From Bacteroidales bacterium (GTDB lineage Bacteria; Bacteroidota; Bacteroidia; Bacteroidales; UBA7960), in the NCBI GenBank assembly GCA_041687035.1, contig JAWLCS010000010.1, positions 17,624 to 81,623 of the forward strand: DNA of 64,000 nucleotides, in the 5' to 3' direction. Numbering within the stretch: the stretch's first letter is position 1; each line of letters starts with the position of its first letter. A program made the position numbers and the translations under genes. The notes beneath the pieces were generated by a model that saw only the letters and a list, made by a program, of their open reading frames with translations, did not search any database and was not told the DNA's origin. This document shows, in pieces, positions 3,710-17,387 of the stretch.

Positions 3710-4282
3710 TCAAATTGGACTAACGGGTGTAAAAATAATCATTCTGAGCAAATAGAGGCCAATGAAGCCCAGACCCAGAAAAATGAAGAATGACAACAGG
3801 GTAAAACCTGTAAGGCGGTTAACAGGAATGCCAAGCACCACCGGAGCACCATGCCAGTAAAGAAACAGTGAATAGATCAGGGCGGCGATGGGAAAAAAGG
3901 TCAGTGCGGCGGCAATGGCGGTTACTATTTGTGAAAGCAAAAATGGAATATAGGCTGTAACAGCCAGTCGCATGGAGTGATTAAACCCGGGATTAATACC
4001 ATAAGTTCCGGCCATGCGTGCAACCATCCAGGGTCCTACCAGCAACACCATAAAATTGGCAAACAGGTGCACAAAAAGCAAGGCACCAAAAGAGCTGTTT
4101 ACATATAAATCCTGGCTCTGGTCGGTAAGTGATCGTCCCAGGGCACCCAAGAAAATAAACGGAAGGCCGAAAAAAAGGAAAAAACGTATAGGCTTCAATT
4201 CAAGGTCTCTGATCACTTCCCAGGTGCGGCCAGGGTTGATAAATATTCCGGGAAAAATGGAAAAAAAAGTCTCTGATGACAT
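3710..4282 (-). CDS. Yip1-like multi-pass membrane protein (tentative)
   Basis: 190 aa with about 5 hydrophobic helices. The N-terminus resembles Yip1-domain proteins. Family call is by memory only. Confidence 0.5.
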   Translation of the reverse strand: MSSETFFSIFPGIFINPGRTWEVIRDLELKPIRFFLFFGLPFIFLGALGRSLTDQSQDLYVNSSFGALLFVHLFANFMVLLVGPWMVARMAGTYGINPGFNHSMRLAVTAYIPFLLSQIVTAIAAALTFFPIAALIYSLFLYWHGAPVVLGIPVNRLTGFTLLSFFIFLGLGFIGLYLLRMIIFTPVSPI

Positions 4283-4345
4283 TAAATAACAAAAAATTAT
4301 TCCTTAACAATTCTCTGGCGTCAAAATTAGCAATAAATTGCGAGC

Positions 4346-5263
4346 ATGAACTGGAATGCATGGAAAAAGGGATTTGAGACTTACCTGCAGCTGGAGCGCT
4401 CGCTATCGGAGAATACGGTAACGGCCTACCTCAGCGATCTCGACAAGCTCATTGAGTTTATCGAAACCCAGTATGGCAGCCTTCAGCCTTCCAACGTCAC
4501 CCAGAGCCATTTGGATGAATTTATGGGCTGGGTTGGAAGCCACAAGGGAAGCAGCCGCAGTCAGGCCCGTATCGTTTCGGGTATCCGGGCTTTTTTCAAA
4601 TATCTGCTGTTGGAAGATGCCATTAACCGCAACCCCGCCACTACCCTCGAAACGCCTCGACTGCAGCGCAAGCTGCCCGAGGTACTTAGCTTAGGCGAGA
4701 TTGACCGCATCCTTGCAGCCATTGACCTGAGTAAACCTGAAGGCACCCGCAACAAAGCCATTATTGAAACACTTTATGGCTCTGGGCTCAGGGTCTCAGA
4801 GCTTATAAACCTGAAGATCAGCGACATAAATTTCAGAGAAGATTTTTTGCTGGTAACCGGAAAAGGTAATAAACAACGATTGGTGCCCATTGGCAGCGAA
4901 GCCCTGAAGCACATCAGACTGTATCTATACGGCAGCCGTCACAAAACCCCGCCACAAAAAAGCTTTGAAGACATTCTATTTCTCAACAGGATGGGGCGCC
5001 GGCTCAGCCGCGTAATGATCTTTACCCTGGTAAAAAACCTTTGCAAGGCAGCAGGCATAAAAAAAACGGTGAGTCCACACACTTTCAGGCACAGCTTTGC
5101 CACCCATTTGGTGGAGCGCGGGGCCGACCTTCGTGTGGTGCAGGACATGCTGGGGCACGAATCCATCACTACTACCGAAATTTACACCCACCTGGACCGC
5201 GAGTACTTGCGCGAAGCAATACTATCCTATCACCCACGCTCAGGGCATAAAAAATCACAATAA
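4346..5263 (+). CDS. xerD: site-specific tyrosine recombinase XerD
   Basis: 305 aa with an N-terminal SAM-like core-binding domain. C-terminal HTFRHSFATHL...LGHESITTTEIYTH carries the R-H-R-Y catalytic signature. Confidence 0.85.
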   Translation: MNWNAWKKGFETYLQLERSLSENTVTAYLSDLDKLIEFIETQYGSLQPSNVTQSHLDEFMGWVGSHKGSSRSQARIVSGIRAFFKYLLLEDAINRNPATTLETPRLQRKLPEVLSLGEIDRILAAIDLSKPEGTRNKAIIETLYGSGLRVSELINLKISDINFREDFLLVTGKGNKQRLVPIGSEALKHIRLYLYGSRHKTPPQKSFEDILFLNRMGRRLSRVMIFTLVKNLCKAAGIKKTVSPHTFRHSFATHLVERGADLRVVQDMLGHESITTTEIYTHLDREYLREAILSYHPRSGHKKSQ

Positions 5264-5368: not shown

Positions 5369-8300
5369 ATGAAGAATTTTACCTTTTTTAAAAAACTTTC
5401 TCTCCTGGTTGGAATACTGTTTCTTGCCCTCAATGGTTACGGGCAAGGTTATGTGTTCTACACCAATTTTACAACAGAATCCAACTGGATTAATGGAACC
5501 GGTACCGCTTACGCTGACAGAGGCTACGAAGAAAGCGGCTGGAACTTTGAATTCATTAATTCTATCAGGGACACTGATGTCACTTATGATGGTTCGAGTT
5601 ATTCTGTCAGAAACAGGGGCAATTTAACCATTAAAAGTCTGAATGCAGTAAATGATGTTTCCGGTTTCAGATTTTATCTCCGTGACTGGAGAAATACTCC
5701 GAAAGTAGTCAGAGCTATCATGCTAAGTGTAGATGGTGGTTCAAATTGGACAGAAGTTGGAGAAATTGGCCCCGATGACATTCCAGGCGACTCCTTCGGC
5801 ATTATTGAGTACACTTTTCCTGAGGGCACTCAAAGTTTTGCTGCCAATCAACTTTGGATCAGAGTTATTGGTGAACCTAACAATAACAGCCGTATTAGAG
5901 TAGGTGGGTTTGAAGCTCTGGGCGAAAGCAATGCGGTTGCCACTCCCACATTCAGCCCGGCTCCCGGCCTTTTTACCAGCCCGGTTGATGTTAGCATCAG
6001 CACAACTACAGCAGATGCTTCAATTTATTATACCCTCGATGGCACTGAGCCTTCAGAAAGCAGCACTATTTATACCGGACCGGTTACCATCAGCACTACC
6101 ACTACCATCAAGGCCAGAGCTTACGCCGATGATTTGGATCCAAGCCTTGTTGCCACCGGAACCTATACTTTCCCAACTACCGTGGCAACCATTGCCGAAC
6201 TCAGGCAACTGCAGCCAGGAACCACCCCATATATCCTTTCGGGAGAAGCCATTCTTACTTTTCAGCAGAGTTTCAGAAACCAGAAATATATTGAAGATGG
6301 TACCGCTGGCATCCTTATTGACGATGATGCTGGAATTATTACCACCAGCTACAACCTTTACGATGGAATTACTGGTTTGGAAGGAACCCTGACCTTATTC
6401 GGAAACATGCTGCAATTTACTCCTCTGGCAAACCCCGGACCGGCCACATCCGCCAACAACCAGGTTGTGCCAGTTGTAGTCACACTCAGTCAGCTCGCCA
6501 GCGACTTCGACACCTACGAATCGCGCCTGGTGACCATTGAAAATGCTGAGTTTGTTAGTCCCAGCGGAAACTTTGCCAACGGGCAGATTTATTCCATCAC
6601 AGATGGCACGGCCACCTTCAATTTCCGTACTACCTTTTATGATGTGGATTATGTTGGTGAGCCAATCCCCACAGAACCATTACACCTCACAGCCCTTCCC
6701 AACGCCAGGTCAGATGGAAACTACCTCACTGCCAGGTTCGAGAGCGATTTCAACTTCGATCTGATCGGCACCGACGCAAGCCTTTCTGCATTTACCCTTG
6801 GCGGGATGAATGCCCTGAATCTTGGCGGCGTAGTGGTTGACGACCCGGCCGCAGATGAAGGCGCCACCCTGTTTGTTACAGATTTTACAGGCTTCGCCGG
6901 CATTGTGGTGGCCACCACCCACCCGGCAGCAACATTTACGGCTACCCTTAACGGAACTGAAGTTGCCGAAGGCGACCTGGCCGCCCAGCCACTGGCTTCG
7001 GGCGACGTGGTGATCGTTACCGTTGTAGCTGAGGACGAAGTGACCACCATGCACTACAAAGTGACCCTCAGCGACGAAAACCGCAGCATTGTGTTTACGG
7101 CTCCCCTTGGCGGGGAAGAATACGAAACCGGTGACCCGGTAACTGTAACCTGGACTTCGGCCAATATTACCACGTTGAACCTTTATGTGTACAAAACCGA
7201 TCTGGCGAGCCCTGTGGCCGAATACCCCGGAATTACAGCCGCTGATGGCACTTTTACCGAAAACCTGCCCAACGGTGCGGACGGTGAGTACTATTTCAGG
7301 CTGAGTGATGCCAGCGACCTGGCCTTTTTTGCCGAAAGCGAAACAGTGACCTTTATTGATACCCAGGATCCGGAAATTTATGCACTGGTTCCGGAAAACA
7401 ACGCCACAGATGTTGCCACCGACTTAACTTTTGTGATCGTGGCCGATGAAGACCTATGGCCTGTTGCTGGCAAGTTCATATATATTCACAAGGGAGCTGA
7501 TAATAGTCTGGTGCAGAGTATTGAGGCTACTTCGGCCCTGGTCACCATCGACGGAAATGAAGTTCATTTTTCAGCCACCAACGACCTGGACTTCGAAACC
7601 GCTTATTACGTTCTTGTTGACGAAGGTGCTTTTGTTGACATGGGTGACAATCCATTGCCAGCAATTGCAAGCGGCGACTGGGCCTTTACCACACAAGTTG
7701 AACCGGTATTTGAACTCATTTGCAATGGTGATTTTGAGAACTGGACTGACGGATTACCTGATTGTTGGTATGGCTCCAAATCTAACCTTTCTGCTGCAGC
7801 GGTAACCCAGTATACCGAAAACCCACAATCGGGTAATTCTGCAGTAAAGTTGATGCGCACGGAATCTACCCACCAGCGGTTTACTTCACAATCCACCACC
7901 GTTGAAAACGGGAAAGTATACAAAATTACTTTCTGGCTCAAAGGCAAGGGCGATATCCGCACGGGACTGTTTGATGACCGCCCCGGCGACAGTTATGGTT
8001 ATGCCACCTATAACGATTACATAAGTGTAAACTCCAACACATGGCAGGAAAACACACAATATATTACTGCAGCCAATAACACCAGCATTGCAGAATTTAT
8101 CTTCTCACTCCGCAGTACTGATGAGGCCCTGAATCACATTCAACTCGACAATGTGACCATTACAGAAGTAAGTGATGATGCTACCCAGGTAGCCAACCTA
8201 CAGGCCCTTCGCTCCGCCAATCTGGGTGCAAAATACCAGTTAACAGGCGAAGCAGTCATTACTTTCCAGCAAAATCACCGCAAACAGAAATACATTCAGG

Positions 8301-11341: not shown

Positions 11342-11974
11342 ATGAGTGACTTTCCTAAAGCCATAGCCAAGCGTTACGATGGACTCTCGAAGCAGAGCTG
11401 CTGCTTGTCCTGCGGGGGAGCATTTTCCCTGGCAAGCATCGAGCCCGGCTTTGTTTGTGTTGACCTTGGATGCGGCAAAGGCCACGATGTATTGCGAATG
11501 GCCACCATGGCAGGCGAAAAAGGCTTTGCCTACGGAGTAGATATTTCTGATGGCATGATTGAAACCGCCACAAAAAATGCGGCCATAATGCGGGCTGAAA
11601 ACGTACGTTTTATTAAGTCCCCCCTGGAAAATATTGATCTTGAAAGCGATGCAGCCGATGTGGTAATTTCTAACTGCACCATAAATCACTCCCTCGATCA
11701 GGCGCGGGTATGGCAGGAAATTTCACGCATTCTCAAAAGCGGCGGACATTTTGTAGTGAGTGACATTTATGCTATGGAGGAGGTTCCCGAAGTTTTCCGC
11801 AACGATCCGGTTGCCGTATCAGAATGCTGGGCAGGAGCCGTAACAAAAGAACAATACCTCAGCCACATAAAAGCAGCGGGGCTTTTTGAGGTTTCCATCA
11901 TGGAAGAATCGGCACCTTATGAAAAAGGATCAATACACGTTGCCAGTTTTACCGTAAAAGGCATTAAACCATAA
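11342..11974 (+). CDS. class I SAM-dependent methyltransferase, arsenite methyltransferase (ArsM)-like
   Basis: 210 aa with the DLGCGKG SAM motif. SCCLSCGG (C20, C21, C24), VVISNCTINHS (C112) and ECWAGAVTKEQY (C162) line up with conserved ArsM segments (GCGNP, ISNCVINL, GCxAGA) as I recall them. Confidence 0.7.
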   Translation: MSDFPKAIAKRYDGLSKQSCCLSCGGAFSLASIEPGFVCVDLGCGKGHDVLRMATMAGEKGFAYGVDISDGMIETATKNAAIMRAENVRFIKSPLENIDLESDAADVVISNCTINHSLDQARVWQEISRILKSGGHFVVSDIYAMEEVPEVFRNDPVAVSECWAGAVTKEQYLSHIKAAGLFEVSIMEESAPYEKGSIHVASFTVKGIKP

Positions 11975-11988
11975 CAAAACATATTGTC

Positions 11989-12096
11989 ATGAAAAGTTTT
12001 ATCAAAAAAGAGAAAAAAGAAAAAGTTCAGGAAAAAGTGAAGCAGGCCCAGTGCTGTGCAAAAACATCATCGAGCCCGGCCGGCTGCCACGACTAA
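11989..12096 (+). CDS. 35-aa Cys-rich peptide, candidate precursor or substrate peptide (absent from the ORF track)
   Basis: Own translation of ATG 11989 to TAA 12094..12096: MKSFIKKEKKEKVQEKVKQAQCCAKTSSSPAGCHD. Sits 15 nt after the methyltransferase stop and 48 nt before the rSAM start. A hairpin with T-run follows it. Confidence 0.5.
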   Translation: MKSFIKKEKKEKVQEKVKQAQCCAKTSSSPAGCHD

Positions 12097-12108
12097 AAAA
12101 ACACCAAA

Positions 12109-12132
12109 GGCCCGTAAAGCGGGCCTTTTTTT
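12109..12132 (+). terminator. hairpin plus T-run (terminator or attenuator) between the peptide ORF and the rSAM gene
   Basis: GGCCCGtaaagCGGGCCttttttt: a perfect 6-bp GC stem, 5-nt loop and T7 run. It lies 13 nt after the peptide stop and 13 nt before ATG 12145. Confidence 0.55.
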
Positions 12133-12144
12133 CAGGCAAAAACC

Positions 12145-13449
12145 ATGCAATCCTCGCGTTTCAATATTGTTTCGAGGCTAAATAGCAGCCACGAGTATTT
12201 TGTGGTCAACCTGCTTTCGGGCCAGGCCGATCTGCTCAGCCCAGCCGAGGCGGCTTTTCTCGAAAGAGACTTTGAAAAAGCGCCAGCCGAATTTTTCGAA
12301 AAAGGATACCTGGTTGACCCGGTACAAGAAATGCTTCAGTACCGCCTCAGGTATATCGATTTTATTGAAAAACGCGATCAGGAAGAGGTTCAGGTTTTCT
12401 TTGTGCCGACTTACCAGTGCAACTTCGACTGCAGTTATTGCTACCAAAGCGAGTACCCCGCTCCGCCCGAAAGCCTCTCGCCCGAGATAGTTGATGCTTT
12501 TTTTTCTTTCCTGGAAACCCGGCTGCAGGGCCGCAAAAAATACATTACCCTGTTTGGGGGTGAGCCTTTCCTTGGTGGGAAAAGTTACAAAGCATCTCTC
12601 GAATATTTCTTTGATCGCTGTGCCGAGAACAAAATTGAGCTAGCTGTTGTAACCAACGGATACCACCTCGACGAATATTTCGATTTGCTTTCAAAGGTGA
12701 GCATTCGCGAAATCCAGGTTACCCTCGACGGGCCAGAGCAGCTGCACGACCGCCGCAGGCCCCGCAAAGGCGGGCTGCCTTCCTTTAAAAAGATTGTTGA
12801 AAATATTGACCAGTGTCTTGCGCTGGGCTACACCGTAAACCTGCGTGCGGTAGTCGACCGTGAAAATATGGCTGAGTTGCCTGACCTGGCCCGTTTTGCC
12901 ATCGAAAAGGGCTGGACGGGTCATCCCAACTTCAAAACCCAGCTGGGGCGAAACTACGAACTGCACTATTGCCAGAACGCCCGCAGCAGGCTTTACAGCC
13001 GCGTGGAGCTTTACCACGAACTGTATGGGCTCATCAAACAACACCCGGAGATTCTTGAATTTCACAAACCGGCCTTTTCTGTCGCAAAATTCCTAAGCGA
13101 AAACGGCAGCCTGCCCGATCCCCTCTTCGACTCCTGCCCTGCCTGTAAAAGCGAATGGGCACTCGACTACAGCGGCAGGGTGTATTCTTGCACGGCCACC
13201 GTGGGTAAGCCAGGCGAAGAGTTGGGCACCTTTTTTCCCGAAATGAAACTCAACGAAACGGCCATAAGCGCCTGGCAGGAGCGCGACACCCTGCACATCG
13301 AAAAATGTGCGGAATGCAGCTTGCAACTGGCATGCGGGGGTGGTTGCGGCTCGGTGGCCAAAAACCAGCACGGGCATTTGCTTTCGCCCGACTGCCGGCC
13401 AGTAAAAGAACTTCTGGAAATGGGGCTAGACCTTTACTTCAGCGAATAA
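12145..13449 (+). CDS. radical SAM enzyme with C-terminal SPASM domain (peptide-maturase architecture)
   Basis: 434 aa. CNFDCSYC (C92/C96/C99, Cx3Cx2C) is at about nt 12418..12441. The SPASM signature is CPACKSEWALDYSGRVYSC (Gx4C), then CAECSLQLACGGGC (Cx2Cx5Cx3C), then a later Cys (SPDC), at about nt 13135..13395. An extension of about 88 aa precedes the rSAM core. Confidence 0.85.
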   Translation: MQSSRFNIVSRLNSSHEYFVVNLLSGQADLLSPAEAAFLERDFEKAPAEFFEKGYLVDPVQEMLQYRLRYIDFIEKRDQEEVQVFFVPTYQCNFDCSYCYQSEYPAPPESLSPEIVDAFFSFLETRLQGRKKYITLFGGEPFLGGKSYKASLEYFFDRCAENKIELAVVTNGYHLDEYFDLLSKVSIREIQVTLDGPEQLHDRRRPRKGGLPSFKKIVENIDQCLALGYTVNLRAVVDRENMAELPDLARFAIEKGWTGHPNFKTQLGRNYELHYCQNARSRLYSRVELYHELYGLIKQHPEILEFHKPAFSVAKFLSENGSLPDPLFDSCPACKSEWALDYSGRVYSCTATVGKPGEELGTFFPEMKLNETAISAWQERDTLHIEKCAECSLQLACGGGCGSVAKNQHGHLLSPDCRPVKELLEMGLDLYFSE

Positions 13450-13541: not shown

Positions 13542-15080
13542 ATGGAATTTATTAACGACCATTTTGCCAGCGTGCATATCCTCAACCAGTTCTGGCTTAC
13601 TTTTCTTATGGTTATAAGCATGGTGCTGGTTTCGCGCACGTTTGTGGCCGGCACCCGCTATTCGCCCATCCTGATCATTGTGGTCTTTGGTCTGCTAATG
13701 GGCTTTATCCTGGTCAACACCGGACTGGCCTCGCCCGGCCTGCCGGAGTTTCCCATTGTGGAACTGGGAAGCCGCGTTACCATCACTGCCCTTATGGCAT
13801 CATTCTTTGTGGGAGGGCAGGAGATACGCAAGCTCATTACCAACCAAAAAATTGATCCCGAAGATATTGTGGTTCCTTCTTCCGAAGAAATATTCCTTGG
13901 CACCAAAGCCACCCAGTTTATGTTTCTGGTTAGGGCGTTCTTTATCCTGATTGGCATTGAATCGCTGAAGCGGGTTATTGTGAGTCATGACTCGGGCGAC
14001 GCCCTCGACCATTTTTATCCCCTGCTGGGGTACCTGGGGCTGGTAGCTTCCATTATCCTGATCGACCACCGCGCCAAGATATCAAACAAGGCGGTTTATA
14101 TCCGCAAGGGCATTTTCGAAACGGCCATAATACTTTTGTTACTGGTGGTTTCTTATTACATTGCACAGTGGATCAAACCCCTGATTGCCCTGCCCGAGAT
14201 CTTTTTCGCCATGATCCTTTCGGTTAGTCTGGGTATGATACTGGTTCACTGGAAATTTGGACCCACTATACGCTCCCTGCTTTTTGCGGGGATTCCGGTG
14301 GTGTTGGCAGCCAATTTTATGGTGGGAGGCTCGCGCATTGCCGATGCTTTTCAGCTTGGAGGCATGACCTCTGTACTTTCGTTTGGCTTTTTCGGTCAGT
14401 TATTCTGGATGTTTGGCGGTTTGGCTATTCTCATTCTTATTGGCAAGGCCAACCACATTCGTAACCTGGCACCCGGTATGGCAGGATCCCTTTCGCACTC
14501 AGGCCTTACGGGTGCCTGTACCGCCGGCGACCTTGGCCCCGAAGCCGCAGTCCGTGCACCCATCATGATCAACATTCCTTTTATCGGCCACATATTCGTC
14601 TTCTCAATCCTGGCAGCCAGCGCTACGGCCGGCAGGTTGCTCGTACCTTACGCCCTGATAGTAGTTGTGGTAGGGATGGCATTGACCTGGCTGGCCCTAA
14701 AAACCCTGCGCACCGCCAACGGAAGCGATAAAATTGAAATCCGTGGCCTCATGCTCTTTTCGCTGGGATGGCAGCTGGTAGCCGTATTTGGTGGACTGCT
14801 CATTTTGAGTATCTCGGGCATGAGCCTTGGCGATGCCGTTATGGCCAACGCATCTGCCATCTCGCACTTCGGTCTGTTTGCGGCCATACAGGGAGGCATG
14901 TTTGGAACGCAAGCCGCCGGCCTCATTGCATTTGTTTTTGCCATGCCCTTTTTGGTGCACCCATTGGTGTTTGGCATTTTTGGCAAAACCGCTGAGAACA
15001 ATGGCGTTATGCCAGAAAAAATCGTATACGCCCTGGCCCTGATAGGCGTTGGGGGCGTGCTCTACTCCATGATTTTTTAA
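13542..15080 (+). CDS. polytopic membrane protein, putative transporter (family not recognised)
   Basis: 512 aa with about 12-14 hydrophobic helices throughout. A TATTTTTG -7 box is at 13496..13503. No diagnostic motif recognised. Confidence 0.55.
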   Translation: MEFINDHFASVHILNQFWLTFLMVISMVLVSRTFVAGTRYSPILIIVVFGLLMGFILVNTGLASPGLPEFPIVELGSRVTITALMASFFVGGQEIRKLITNQKIDPEDIVVPSSEEIFLGTKATQFMFLVRAFFILIGIESLKRVIVSHDSGDALDHFYPLLGYLGLVASIILIDHRAKISNKAVYIRKGIFETAIILLLLVVSYYIAQWIKPLIALPEIFFAMILSVSLGMILVHWKFGPTIRSLLFAGIPVVLAANFMVGGSRIADAFQLGGMTSVLSFGFFGQLFWMFGGLAILILIGKANHIRNLAPGMAGSLSHSGLTGACTAGDLGPEAAVRAPIMINIPFIGHIFVFSILAASATAGRLLVPYALIVVVVGMALTWLALKTLRTANGSDKIEIRGLMLFSLGWQLVAVFGGLLILSISGMSLGDAVMANASAISHFGLFAAIQGGMFGTQAAGLIAFVFAMPFLVHPLVFGIFGKTAENNGVMPEKIVYALALIGVGGVLYSMIF

Positions 15081-15129
15081 GGAGTTTTCAACAACGCGTT
15101 TGTTCATAACAAAAAGATATATCTTTGCC

Positions 15130-15310
15130 GCTGGTTTTGGTTCCGGAACCCAACAGGGTTTAACGGATGAAAAGGGAATCAGGTGTAAATCCTGAACAGT
15201 TCCCGCTGCTGTGAGCTCTTTCATATTGTTTGCCAATCTTGGCCACTGTCCCGCACGCGAGGGATGGGAAGGCGGCAAACAAGGAGTAAGTCAGAAGACC
15301 TGCCATACCA
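15130..15310 (+). promoter_or_regulatory. cobalamin (B12) riboswitch
   Basis: Conserved core elements are visible: GGTTCCGG, AAAAGGGAATCAGGTGTAAATCCTGAACAGTTCCCGCTGCTGT, GCCACTG, GGGAAGGCG and the B12 box AGTCAGAAGACCTGCC. A TATCTTTG -7 box is at 15120..15127. It lies upstream of a TonB-dependent receptor. Confidence 0.85.
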
Positions 15311-15458
15311 TTTGTATTTGTAGCTTTCGGGAAAAAAAGCGAAGAAAAACTGATGCATCAATTTTTCTCCAACTGGTTTCGCCGTTTGTTGCAAATAATT
15401 TTAAAAAATTATTTGTTAACATTTTCCGGTCTTTGGCCGGAAGCAAAACTATCACATC

Positions 15459-17387
15459 ATGCACAAATCACTCATTGGCTTACTGACTTTTGTCTTGTTA
15501 TTTTCTTTTTCCGCTTTCGCGGAAGCACCCGACACCCTGATCACGCTGTCGGAAGTTTCGATAAGTGCACGCCGGCAGCACGACTTCGGCGCCGGCCACA
15601 GCTCCTCCACCATCGACAGTACTATTCTTCAGCAGCAATCGCAACAGCATCTGGGCTACCTGCTAGGGCGACATTCGGGCATATTCATTAAAAGCTACGG
15701 GCCCGGAATACTGGCTTCTAATAGCCTGCGCGGCGGCCAGCCCGGACAAACGGCATTGATGTGGAATGGCTTCAGCCTGCAAAGCCCCATGAACGGACAG
15801 GCTGACCTGGCGCTGATGCCCGTATTGTTTGCCGACGAGATACAAGTTCAATATGGTGGTGGCAGCGCCCTGTGGGGCAGCGGCGCCATGGGCGGAGCCA
15901 TTTTCATAAACAACCACCGCAGCCGCCAGCTTGGCTTTTCCGCAGAAGCGGGAATAAACACGGCCAGCATTGGCGACCTTGGCCAAAGCCTGAAGCTAAG
16001 CTACGGATTGCAAAACTTTTCGACTACGTTGCGTTTTTTCAACCGCAACGCCAGCAATAAATACCGCTTTGCCAACACTACCCTTCCCGGCAACCCCGTG
16101 GAGGAACAACTTCTGGCTGGCATTTCGCAAACGGGCATTTTGCATGAAACCTGGTTCAGGCTGGGAAACAACCACCAGTTCGACCTGCGCTGGTGGTGGC
16201 AGGACAACGACCGCGACATACCTCCGGCCCTTGATTTTACCTTTTATGAATCCCGACAAAAAGATCAGAGCCTTCGCCTGAGCGGGCAGTGGCAAATGAG
16301 CCTGCCCAGGGTGCTGTTCTTCGTCAGGGGTGCCCGCTTTGAAGATTATCTGGATTATTCCGACAATTTCGATTATGTTGGAAACAGCTACTCTACCACC
16401 CTTACCGGCGAAGCCGAGGCACGCTGGAATCCCCGCAAGGGAATTATTTTTAACGGTGGAATAAACTTACAGGACATTACCGCCAAAGCCGACGAATACG
16501 ATCAGGAGGAGGGCCGCTTTAGCCTTGCCCTGTTTGCTTCGGCCAAGTGGGAGGCCATTGAAGAATCGCTCGAGTTGGTGGTGAGCGGTCGGCAGGAGTT
16601 GGTAAAAGACTATGAGATCCCCTTTGCGCCTGCCATGGGCTTTTCGTGGAAGGTGGCCCCCCAGTGGGCCGTAAAAGGCAATGCCGGCTACAGCTATCTG
16701 CTGCCTTCGCTCAACGCCCTTTTCTGGAACCCCGGCGGCAACCCCGATCTGAAACCTGAACAGGGCTGGAGTGGCGATCTGAGGCTGGAACGCAAACTGT
16801 CGAATGGTAAAAACGACAAAAGCTTCAGCCCTTTTCAGGATGTTAGCATAGGAGGCTATCATCGCAACATCAAAAACTGGATTATCTGGTTGCCCCAAGA
16901 GGACTCGTGGATATGGATGCCCGAAAATCGGGCAGAGGTGCGCAGCTATGGCATCGAAAGTCGCCTGGGCGGCCACTGGCAGCAAGGGCACAACCGCCTG
17001 CAATGGGGTGTGCGCTACGACCATACCATTGCCCGAAACACTAAAGCCGCGGTGGCCGAAGACCCTTCGCTCGACAAGCAGCTGATATACGTGCCCCGCA
17101 ACAGGGTTGGGATGAATCTGGCCTTTATTCATAAAAACCTAAGCCTGACCTACGACCACGAGATCAACGGAAAGCGTTTTACCAACAGTGACAACAGCGA
17201 GTCGCTGCCAGCTTACCACTCGGGCGATGCAGGCCTGCACTGGCACAGGAAGTTTGCTAATTATGGCCTGGGGTTAAATTTAAAAGTAGAGAATATATGG
17301 AACACCCGCTACCAAATCATTGCCAACCGGCCCATGCCGCTGCGCTTTGTGAGGGCAGGCATAAGTTTTTCCTTTCATCAAAAGTAG
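15459..17387 (+). CDS. TonB-dependent receptor, BtuB-like (inferred corrinoid transporter)
   Basis: 642 aa with a signal peptide, a TonB-box-like DTLITLSEVSISA and a plug domain (IKSYGPG...SLRGG), then a long beta-barrel. The corrinoid role is inferred only from the upstream riboswitch. Confidence 0.8.
   Translation: MHKSLIGLLTFVLLFSFSAFAEAPDTLITLSEVSISARRQHDFGAGHSSSTIDSTILQQQSQQHLGYLLGRHSGIFIKSYGPGILASNSLRGGQPGQTALMWNGFSLQSPMNGQADLALMPVLFADEIQVQYGGGSALWGSGAMGGAIFINNHRSRQLGFSAEAGINTASIGDLGQSLKLSYGLQNFSTTLRFFNRNASNKYRFANTTLPGNPVEEQLLAGISQTGILHETWFRLGNNHQFDLRWWWQDNDRDIPPALDFTFYESRQKDQSLRLSGQWQMSLPRVLFFVRGARFEDYLDYSDNFDYVGNSYSTTLTGEAEARWNPRKGIIFNGGINLQDITAKADEYDQEEGRFSLALFASAKWEAIEESLELVVSGRQELVKDYEIPFAPAMGFSWKVAPQWAVKGNAGYSYLLPSLNALFWNPGGNPDLKPEQGWSGDLRLERKLSNGKNDKSFSPFQDVSIGGYHRNIKNWIIWLPQEDSWIWMPENRAEVRSYGIESRLGGHWQQGHNRLQWGVRYDHTIARNTKAAVAEDPSLDKQLIYVPRNRVGMNLAFIHKNLSLTYDHEINGKRFTNSDNSESLPAYHSGDAGLHWHRKFANYGLGLNLKVENIWNTRYQIIANRPMPLRFVRAGISFSFHQK

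Follow-up and report, generated by a model that had tools for sequence, protein, structure and literature searches.

A three-cysteine peptide gene conserved between an ArsM-type methyltransferase and a radical SAM/SPASM enzyme: a probable new family of modified peptides

In a stretch of 64,000 nucleotides (nt) from a Bacteroidales bacterium (GenBank assembly GCA_041687035.1, contig JAWLCS010000010.1, positions 17,624 to 81,623 of the forward strand; hereafter the window), a short open reading frame (ORF) at 11989-12096 on the forward strand is a genuine gene under protein-level selection, and it is tightly linked to the two enzyme genes that flank it. The ORF runs from an ATG start to a TAA stop at 12094-12096 and encodes a peptide of 35 amino acids (aa), MKSFIKKEKKEKVQEKVKQAQCCAKTSSSPAGCHD, exactly as claimed in a preliminary description that was made from the sequence alone. 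It is preceded by a gene for a small methyltransferase that depends on S-adenosylmethionine (SAM) and belongs to the arsenite methyltransferase family ("mini-ArsM"), and followed by a gene for a radical SAM/SPASM enzyme; all three lie on the forward strand. We propose that the peptide probably founds a new, uncurated family of radical-SAM-modified peptides, resembling the RiPPs (peptides made by the ribosome and then modified after translation), that probably carries a thioether and has an intracellular role in thiol or metalloid handling.

The peptide ORF is under selection as a protein

An ORF of this length is unremarkable, as 151 ORFs of at least 30 aa are listed in 14 kb of the window. 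Size alone is therefore not significant, and gene status had to be tested comparatively. For this, each of 185,579 bacterial and archaeal species was represented by one genome in a scan that had an alignment of relatives of the radical SAM enzyme as the query; the enzyme has 3634 protein relatives at E≤1e-20. The species scan confirmed at least 592 radical SAM loci, of which the best 80, all from metagenome-assembled genomes (MAGs), were examined. In 79 of these 80 loci the radical SAM gene has a small orthologous ORF upstream (three of the ORFs start with GTG and one is cut by a contig end).

The end of the peptide is strikingly uniform. In all 80 sequences, the window included, the C-terminus reads A-Q-C-C-A-K-x-S-x-x-x-(A/V)-G-C-H-D with the stop codon directly after it, and the residues A, Q, C, C, A, K, G, C, H and D and the stop fall at the same positions in 80 of 80. 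Residue 27 is Ser in 76 sequences and otherwise Thr or Ala, and G32 is conserved. Synonymous codons of the invariant residues are used freely (four codons each for Ala and Gly), and TAA, TGA and TAG all serve as stop. Codon variation at the ten invariant positions is confined to the third base, and when codons at these positions are compared pair by pair, roughly half of the comparisons show a difference. Compared with locus L001, one of its two closest relatives, the window ORF differs at 11 codons synonymously and at 1 non-synonymously; with L002, the other, the figures are 10 and 1. This pattern amounts to purifying selection on a protein. The preliminary description had named frameshifts or stops in close relatives, or loss of the cysteines, as observations that would refute it; we saw no frameshift or stop in the relatives, and all three cysteines of the peptide are invariant.

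An ORF in an alternative frame (window 12051-12185, forward strand, starting MLCQN... or MLCK...) recurs at equivalent sites in many loci. The codons CAA-TGC-TGT-GCx-AAA of the conserved core seem to cast it as a shadow in another frame, and its end is not conserved.

A conserved leader motif, a variable spacer and a fixed core

The peptide divides into a leader and a core. The leader, residues 1-19 (MKSFIKKEKKEKVQEKVKQ, 11989-12045), opens with a M-K-S/T-L/F-x-K-K motif that passes into a Lys/Glu-rich spacer; the core, residues 20-35 (AQCCAKTSSSPAGCHD), occupies 12046-12096 together with the TAA stop and carries the C-terminal motif AQCCAKxSxxxxGCHD. The preliminary description had drawn a similar picture, and its bipartite layout is borne out by the conserved N-terminal motif, the variable spacer and the fixed cysteine core: we count 8 Lys, 3 Glu and no Cys in the first 21 residues, and all three cysteines lie within the last 14. 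Its split was right in kind, the conserved core starting two residues earlier than proposed, at A20-Q21. The Thr/Ser run and the Pro-Ala that it had listed as core features are not conserved in relatives, where of this segment only S27 and G32 are kept.

We also built a profile of the peptide and used it to search 1.84 billion representative proteins; for the window peptide itself, the protein search was made with a 40-aa in-frame extension. The profile search returned 125 clusters of 30-62 aa that share the core and differ in their leaders. Across them the leader begins M-K-(S/T)-L-x-(K/R)-K, with M1 invariant and L4 and K7 at least 90% conserved (the window peptide has F at position 4), and continues in a spacer of about 14 to 45 residues rich in Lys, Glu, Thr and Pro. 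Rare variants end in GCHN, GCRD or SCHD; one metagenome locus, ASCCAEAQCCAK...SCHD, has Ser in place of the otherwise invariant Gly before the last Cys. An extra CC, often as CCAP, is found in the leader of P0213, P0257, P0259, P0261 and P0267. A further sequence of 243 aa (P0195) with four tandem weak ...CCVKTPT(V/M)SSGCRD... segments was judged to be a spurious translation of a DNA repeat and set aside.

The peptide has no match in NCBIfam or Pfam, even with E-values up to 10 included. The preliminary description had treated the ORF as too short to be called as a gene; this does not hold everywhere, as it is called as a 35-aa gene in the NCBI assembly GCA_964489985.1, a match to the window, and appears as "hypothetical protein" in a few JGI records.

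Three genes form a tightly linked cassette

The conserved unit, about 2.1 kb in the window, comprises the mini-ArsM gene (11342-11974, forward strand, 210 aa, stop at 11972-11974), the peptide gene and the radical SAM/SPASM gene (12145-13449, forward strand, 434 aa). The peptide ORF is separated from the first by 14 nt, not 15 as previously given, and from the ATG of the second at 12145 by 48 nt, as previously given. Tight spacing had been offered as a sign that the ORF is not random intergenic sequence, which is a weak argument: among relatives the gap between the peptide and radical SAM genes ranges from 4 to 357 nt.

We clustered the flanking ORFs of all 80 loci, within flanks of up to 4 kb, and found that only two families recur beside the radical SAM enzyme. 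One is the methyltransferase, present in 70 of the 72 loci with room upstream. The other is a fusion of thioredoxin and thioredoxin reductase (Trx-TrxR) of about 423 aa, identified with Pfam and NCBIfam, which lies directly downstream in 51 of the 71 loci with room. We then ran the scan in reverse and searched metagenome contigs with the methyltransferase. Among 58 loci with at least 900 nt downstream, a peptide with the same core was present in 57 and the radical SAM gene in 56; in one of the metagenome loci (L131) the methyltransferase and peptide genes are separated by an inserted thioredoxin gene. The three genes are thus tightly linked from whichever enzyme the search begins, and the earlier suggestion that the peptide belongs with the adjacent SPASM enzyme agrees both with these two scans and with a joint loss of the two genes.

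This joint loss is seen in an abundant lineage from anaerobic digesters (L085-L087, at about 4001-5127, and L098), which has kept the methyltransferase and lost the peptide gene together with the radical SAM gene. The surroundings are otherwise syntenic, in the same gene order: endonuclease, PspC, DUF456, methyltransferase, B12 riboswitch and TonB receptor. In their methyltransferase, the otherwise invariant N-terminal CC has become CR.

Two types of cassette exist. About half of the methyltransferase homologues (L009, L015, L029 and others) carry a Cys-rich C-terminal tail, for example KKCCCCS, and this tail co-occurs with the Trx-TrxR fusion (both in 37 loci, neither in 16, fusion only in 9, tail only in 1; Fisher p=7.8e-8). 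The window belongs to the type that has neither, and a tblastn search found no homologue of the fusion anywhere in the 64 kb.

Other neighbours of the cassette are occasional, with DUF1847 at 11, DUF302 at 13 and YceI at 14 of the 80 loci, the latter two following the cassette. The DUF1847 protein, Cys-rich and about 185 aa long, is encoded between the radical SAM and Trx-TrxR genes in L020, L036, L046, L054, L072, L080 and others; we considered it as a link to the DVU_1556/1557 system and dropped this idea, since it has no NCBIfam match. An Ignavibacteria cassette (L088) has a second methyltransferase of 181 aa at 5659-6204, after the fusion. Among the neighbour clusters of the 80 loci we found no recurrent gene for a protease, an ABC exporter, immunity or ars resistance, and there is no ars-type gene among the annotated genes of the window.

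A maturase-type radical SAM enzyme with a recognition-like domain

The radical SAM/SPASM enzyme resembles peptide maturases. Read from the sequence, it carries a CX3CX2C cluster motif (C92/C96/C99) and the seven-Cys SPASM pattern CX9-15GX4C...CX2CX5CX3C...C, here C334-x9-G344-x4-C349...C388-x2-C391-x5-C397-x3-C401...C417; all of these cysteines are invariant in 20 homologues. Pfam reports a Radical_SAM match at E=3.2e-21. Residues 1 to about 80 form a domain that resembles a peptide-recognition domain: in an AlphaFold2 (AF2) model with a mean predicted local distance difference test score (pLDDT) of 77.6, three beta-strands and helices precede residue 80. A Foldseek search with this model returned CteB at the top, aligned over 432 columns with the N-terminal domain included (in CteB this strand-helix domain is the peptide-recognition element), followed by SuiB (448-462 columns) and then by the anaerobic sulfatase-maturating enzyme anSME. 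CteB (5WGG) is also the best PDB match by sequence, at E=1e-19.

Among curated families, the enzyme aligns along its full length with peptide maturases, among them CefB (NF038107) at 148 bits (cut-off 600), TIGR04463 at 127 (cut-off 525) and PapB at 111 (cut-off 340), and it scores 69 against the SCIFF maturase model (cut-off 425) and 57 against the MftC model. ArsL and ArsS are not among its 25 best NCBIfam matches. CteB and PapB are its nearest characterised relatives.

A minimal ArsM that keeps the catalytic cysteines

The methyltransferase lacks about 50 N-terminal residues and the C-terminal domain of canonical ArsM. Solved ArsM chains in the PDB measure 377-387 aa and include this C-terminal domain. 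The best NCBIfam match is the arsenite methyltransferase family NF008823, at 168 bits against a cut-off of 263 and covering profile positions 62-233 of 272; homologues are named "arsenite methyltransferase" in JGI records. Its best PDB matches are to CmArsM (4FR0/4KW7, E=1.4e-23), and C24, C112 and C162 align to the catalytic CmArsM C72, C174 and C224. Six cysteines, C20, C21, C24, C39, C112 and C162, are invariant or nearly so in 72 homologues. Four conserved cysteines are required for catalysis in most ArsM/AS3MT enzymes (PMC8552651), and the CC at positions 20-21 is a candidate for the fourth.

With both enzymes below all curated cut-offs and the peptide without a model, the whole cassette stands outside the curated families.

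Elements downstream of the peptide gene

Between the peptide and radical SAM genes the window holds a terminator-like hairpin (12106-12132, forward strand). The hairpin proper spans 12106-12128, with the stem AAAGGCCCGT/GCGGGCCTTT and an AAA loop, and runs into seven T (12126-12132); RNAfold gives -15.7 kcal/mol. A terminator scan listed it on the reverse strand, since its A- and T-runs make it symmetric. Hairpins at least as strong as -14 kcal/mol, unrelated in sequence, stand behind the stop codon of the peptide in about 30 of the 56 loci with a gap of 25 nt or more. It is common in RiPP clusters that the precursor message exceeds the enzyme message, and by analogy the hairpin would fit such an arrangement, which is not universal in these cassettes. 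An Rfam search over the ORF region found no family at threshold (two sub-threshold matches to sRNA models had E-values of 0.11 and 0.41).

Directly downstream of the radical SAM gene lies a gene for a polytopic membrane protein of 512 aa and unknown family (13542-15080, forward strand), with no match in Pfam, NCBIfam or PDB. It occupies the slot that the Trx-TrxR fusion holds in other relatives. Among the 80 loci its homologues occur only in the two closest, L001 and L002, and we therefore rejected it as a conserved member of the system. Further downstream, a full-length cobalamin riboswitch (RF00174, 108 bits, 15121-15321, forward strand) precedes a gene for a BtuB-like TonB-dependent receptor (15459-17387); a separate transcription unit, under B12 regulation, begins there.

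A proposed route from peptide to intracellular product

The short ORF is co-oriented with, adjacent to and conserved with a radical SAM/SPASM gene, and joins a leader, whose N-terminal motif is conserved, to an invariant 16-aa core. We consider it very likely that the peptide is a genuine substrate of this enzyme. For thioether chemistry in particular, suggested by the types of the nearest maturases, the chances seem to us about even, and some involvement of a metalloid is a tentative proposal that we would sooner doubt than accept.

We picture the following course. Transcripts would partly stop at the hairpin, so that the peptide message outnumbers that of the enzyme. The leader, through MKS(L/F)xKK, would dock on the N-terminal domain of the radical SAM enzyme, with the Lys-rich spacer as a tether. 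Using a 5'-deoxyadenosyl radical and its auxiliary Fe-S clusters, the enzyme would crosslink one or more of C22, C23 and C33 to a carbon atom in a different invariant residue of the core, forming a thioether of the sacti- or ranthi-type; Asp35, His34, Lys25 and Gln21 are candidate acceptors. The ArsM-type enzyme may then act on the peptide, or on something held by its remaining thiols, as its retained thiol site argues for a thiophilic substrate. In most relatives the Trx-TrxR fusion would keep these thiols reduced. A core that stays invariant from phylum to phylum, and the lack of any conserved protease or exporter, make an intracellular product most likely; it would handle thiols or metalloids in a cofactor- or chaperone-like way, comparable to SCIFF or mycofactocin, rather than act as a secreted antibiotic.

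The preliminary description had proposed Ser and Thr as acceptors. That proposal is weakened: a single Ser, S27, is near-invariant, and some homologues have Ala in its place. Formation of formylglycine, as by anSME-type enzymes, was also considered: the core has C-x-A without the Arg that the C-x-P/A-x-R motif carries at +4, which leaves it a minor alternative only.

Several points weigh against this proposal. Modification of the peptide by the enzyme is deduced from the genes. The enzyme falls below every curated maturase cut-off, and far enough that its type of reaction could differ; Pfam reports no match of its SPASM model to it. The Ala at position 27 of some homologues means that a classic ranthipeptide link from Cys to Ser or Thr is not required. 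The partnership is also not absolute. The methyltransferase persists alone in the abundant digester lineage; L118 has the methyltransferase and the peptide (4134-4253) with no radical SAM gene within 3.5 kb; and L053, from Ignavibacteriales, has the radical SAM and Trx-TrxR genes, and within 4 kb of them neither the methyltransferase nor the peptide. The Trx-TrxR fusion is missing from the clade of the window itself, and the hairpin is absent from 24 loci in which the gap, below 25 nt, is too short for one. Finally, the absence of exporters and proteases is negative evidence that extends over flanks of up to 4 kb. In L118, as read from its sequence, an ORF resembling pyridine-nucleotide-disulfide oxidoreductases follows the peptide.

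Alternative explanations

The alternative that survives best is peptide-scaffolded metalloid chemistry, which in its full form we consider unlikely. The CC...C of the peptide would hold a soft metalloid, As(III) or else Sb, Se or Te, and mini-ArsM would methylate it in place; the SPASM enzyme would lock the scaffold, or might even join carbon to the metalloid or to sulfur on the peptide once loaded, and Trx-TrxR would recycle the thiols. The product could be a peptide-bound organoarsenical, or the peptide could be a dedicated carrier of substrate that replaces As(GS)3 in glutathione-free anaerobes. A vicinal Cys pair with one distal Cys is a classical S3 site for As(III), as in ArsD C12-C13-C18, and the peptide's own triad resembles it. 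The methyltransferase keeps the As(III)-binding cysteines of ArsM, invariant, and many homologues add the CCCC-type tail that goes with the Trx-TrxR fusion; the decay of its CC to CR where the peptide and radical SAM genes were lost also suits this scheme, as does the pairing of ArsM with a radical SAM enzyme, ArsL or ArsS, in two organoarsenical pathways. The preliminary description had likewise compared the cysteines with the ArsD triad, and the ArsM-type neighbour with its As(III)-binding cysteines lends that comparison support from context; the peptide itself is not an ArsD homologue, and metalloid binding by it is putative. Against the scheme, none of the 80 neighbourhoods has a conserved ars resistance or transport gene and the annotated window genes include none, the methyltransferase scores under the ArsM cut-off, and the radical SAM enzyme, with its recognition-like domain and SPASM pattern, is of the peptide-maturase type, unlike ArsL and ArsS.

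Two further alternatives are less probable still, and equally so. In one, the peptide is a RiPP that is secreted as an antimicrobial or a signal, like a bacteriocin or quorum signal; its leader would be removed, and in the window the 512-aa membrane protein could export it. RiPP natural products have this layout of leader and core and this type of maturase, the radical SAM gene of the window is indeed followed by a gene for a membrane protein without a known family, and terminators after precursor genes, which the hairpin here resembles, are common in bacteriocin operons. Competitive antimicrobials would not be expected to keep a core invariant across Bacteroidota, Spirochaetota, Ignavibacteria and a Firmicutes MAG, however; the membrane protein is confined to the two closest relatives, the neighbourhoods conserve no peptidase, ABC exporter or immunity gene, and the peptide has no double-glycine or other recognisable cleavage motif.

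The other makes the peptide an unmodified chaperone for a metal or metalloid, or a redox peptide, that works through its Cys triad with the methyltransferase and Trx-TrxR, the radical SAM enzyme having its substrate elsewhere. The CC-x9-C triad with the terminal His-Asp could ligate a soft metal, and L118 keeps its peptide without an adjacent radical SAM gene. Yet the peptide and the radical SAM gene were lost together in the methyltransferase-only lineage, the enzyme has an N-terminal recognition-type domain like those of CteB and SuiB, and the conserved leader motif would have no obvious role in a plain metal-binding peptide.

A regulatory leader peptide (a Cys-sensing attenuator of the radical SAM gene) or a chance ORF in a leader RNA, as the hairpin right behind the ORF and its Cys-Cys pair might suggest, is effectively refuted by codon-level conservation, because the whole 16-residue core is invariant as amino acids with synonymous change left free and 24 loci have no room for a terminator; moreover, the leader varies threefold in length in front of a core fixed at the C-terminus, and no Rfam family reaches threshold over the region.

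Distribution and significance

The 80 loci come mostly from Bacteroidales and other Bacteroidota; several are labelled Spirochaetota or Ignavibacteriales, and one Syntrophomonadaceae. Prolixibacteraceae, Draconibacterium and Tangfeifania are among the labels of the MAGs related to the window. Isolate names suggest sediments and a spring as sources, and contigs with the related methyltransferase come from anaerobic digesters. For the study of RiPPs and radical SAM enzymes, the cassette offers a new and very uniform pair of substrate and enzyme with an unprecedented partner, an ArsM-type methyltransferase with metalloid-binding cysteines, often joined by a Trx-TrxR fusion. For arsenic biogeochemistry, many annotations of "arsenite methyltransferase" in anaerobes may concern enzymes that need a peptide and a radical SAM enzyme, or that do not methylate arsenic. 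Should the scaffold explanation be true, this would be the first peptide-dependent pathway of arsenic methylation or the first organoarsenical RiPP, and it could explain how ArsM is supplied in glutathione-free anaerobes. The system is small, with only three genes. Our literature search found no description of the cassette, including in a paper on RiPP mining in Bacteroidales (PMC10352776); the search was incomplete and an earlier description is possible.

Comparison with known systems

Several known systems share parts of this design. ArsM is paired with the radical SAM enzymes ArsL for arsinothricin and ArsS for arsenosugars (PMC8552651; bioRxiv 10.1101/2024.02.01.577332). As in these pathways, a gene of the arsenite methyltransferase family, with its catalytic cysteines kept, lies near a radical SAM gene. 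Unlike in these pathways, the radical SAM enzyme of the cassette is of the SPASM peptide maturase type, a peptide gene stands between the two, the methyltransferase is a minimal form of 210 aa, and there is no ars operon context.

ArsD and the S3 As(III) sites of ArsR type share with the peptide a vicinal Cys-Cys and one distal Cys. The peptide nevertheless has no sequence or domain homology to ArsD and does not belong to that family: the spacing is x9 rather than x4, and the members of its own family, 30-62 aa long, bear leaders and go with a radical SAM enzyme.

The small peptide with an invariant C-terminal core and a SPASM partner recalls MftA/MftC of mycofactocin and PqqA/PqqE of pyrroloquinoline quinone (PQQ), as do the presumed intracellular product and the redox partners encoded nearby. 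The core chemistry would differ, being based on Cys rather than on Val-Tyr or Glu-Tyr, and peptidase or chaperone genes like those for MftB/MftE or PqqD/PqqF are not conserved in the cassette.

The best NCBIfam matches of the enzyme, the maturases of CefA/CefB, TIGR04463 and PapA/PapB (freyrasin), all act on Cys-rich substrates. PapB links Cys to Asp, and the core of the window peptide ends in an invariant Cys-His-Asp. Unlike CefA and PapA, the peptide has neither a Cys at every fifth residue nor a CX3D repeat.

The cassette would work like SCIFF (CteA/CteB, Tte1186a/Tte1186; ranthipeptides), where a short Cys-rich peptide likewise stands beside a radical SAM/SPASM enzyme. The SCIFF maturase has a peptide-recognition domain at its N-terminus, which that of our enzyme resembles, and CteB is the best PDB match of our enzyme by both sequence and fold. 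SCIFF and its maturase are a highly conserved, housekeeping-like pair, for which we know of no dedicated protease or exporter. SCIFF precursors have six Cys in about 45 residues, whereas the window peptide has three, as CC-x9-C, and does not belong among them. The cassette also occupies a different range of phyla (Bacteroidota, Spirochaetota and Ignavibacteria) and, unlike SCIFF, it is partnered with an ArsM-type methyltransferase.

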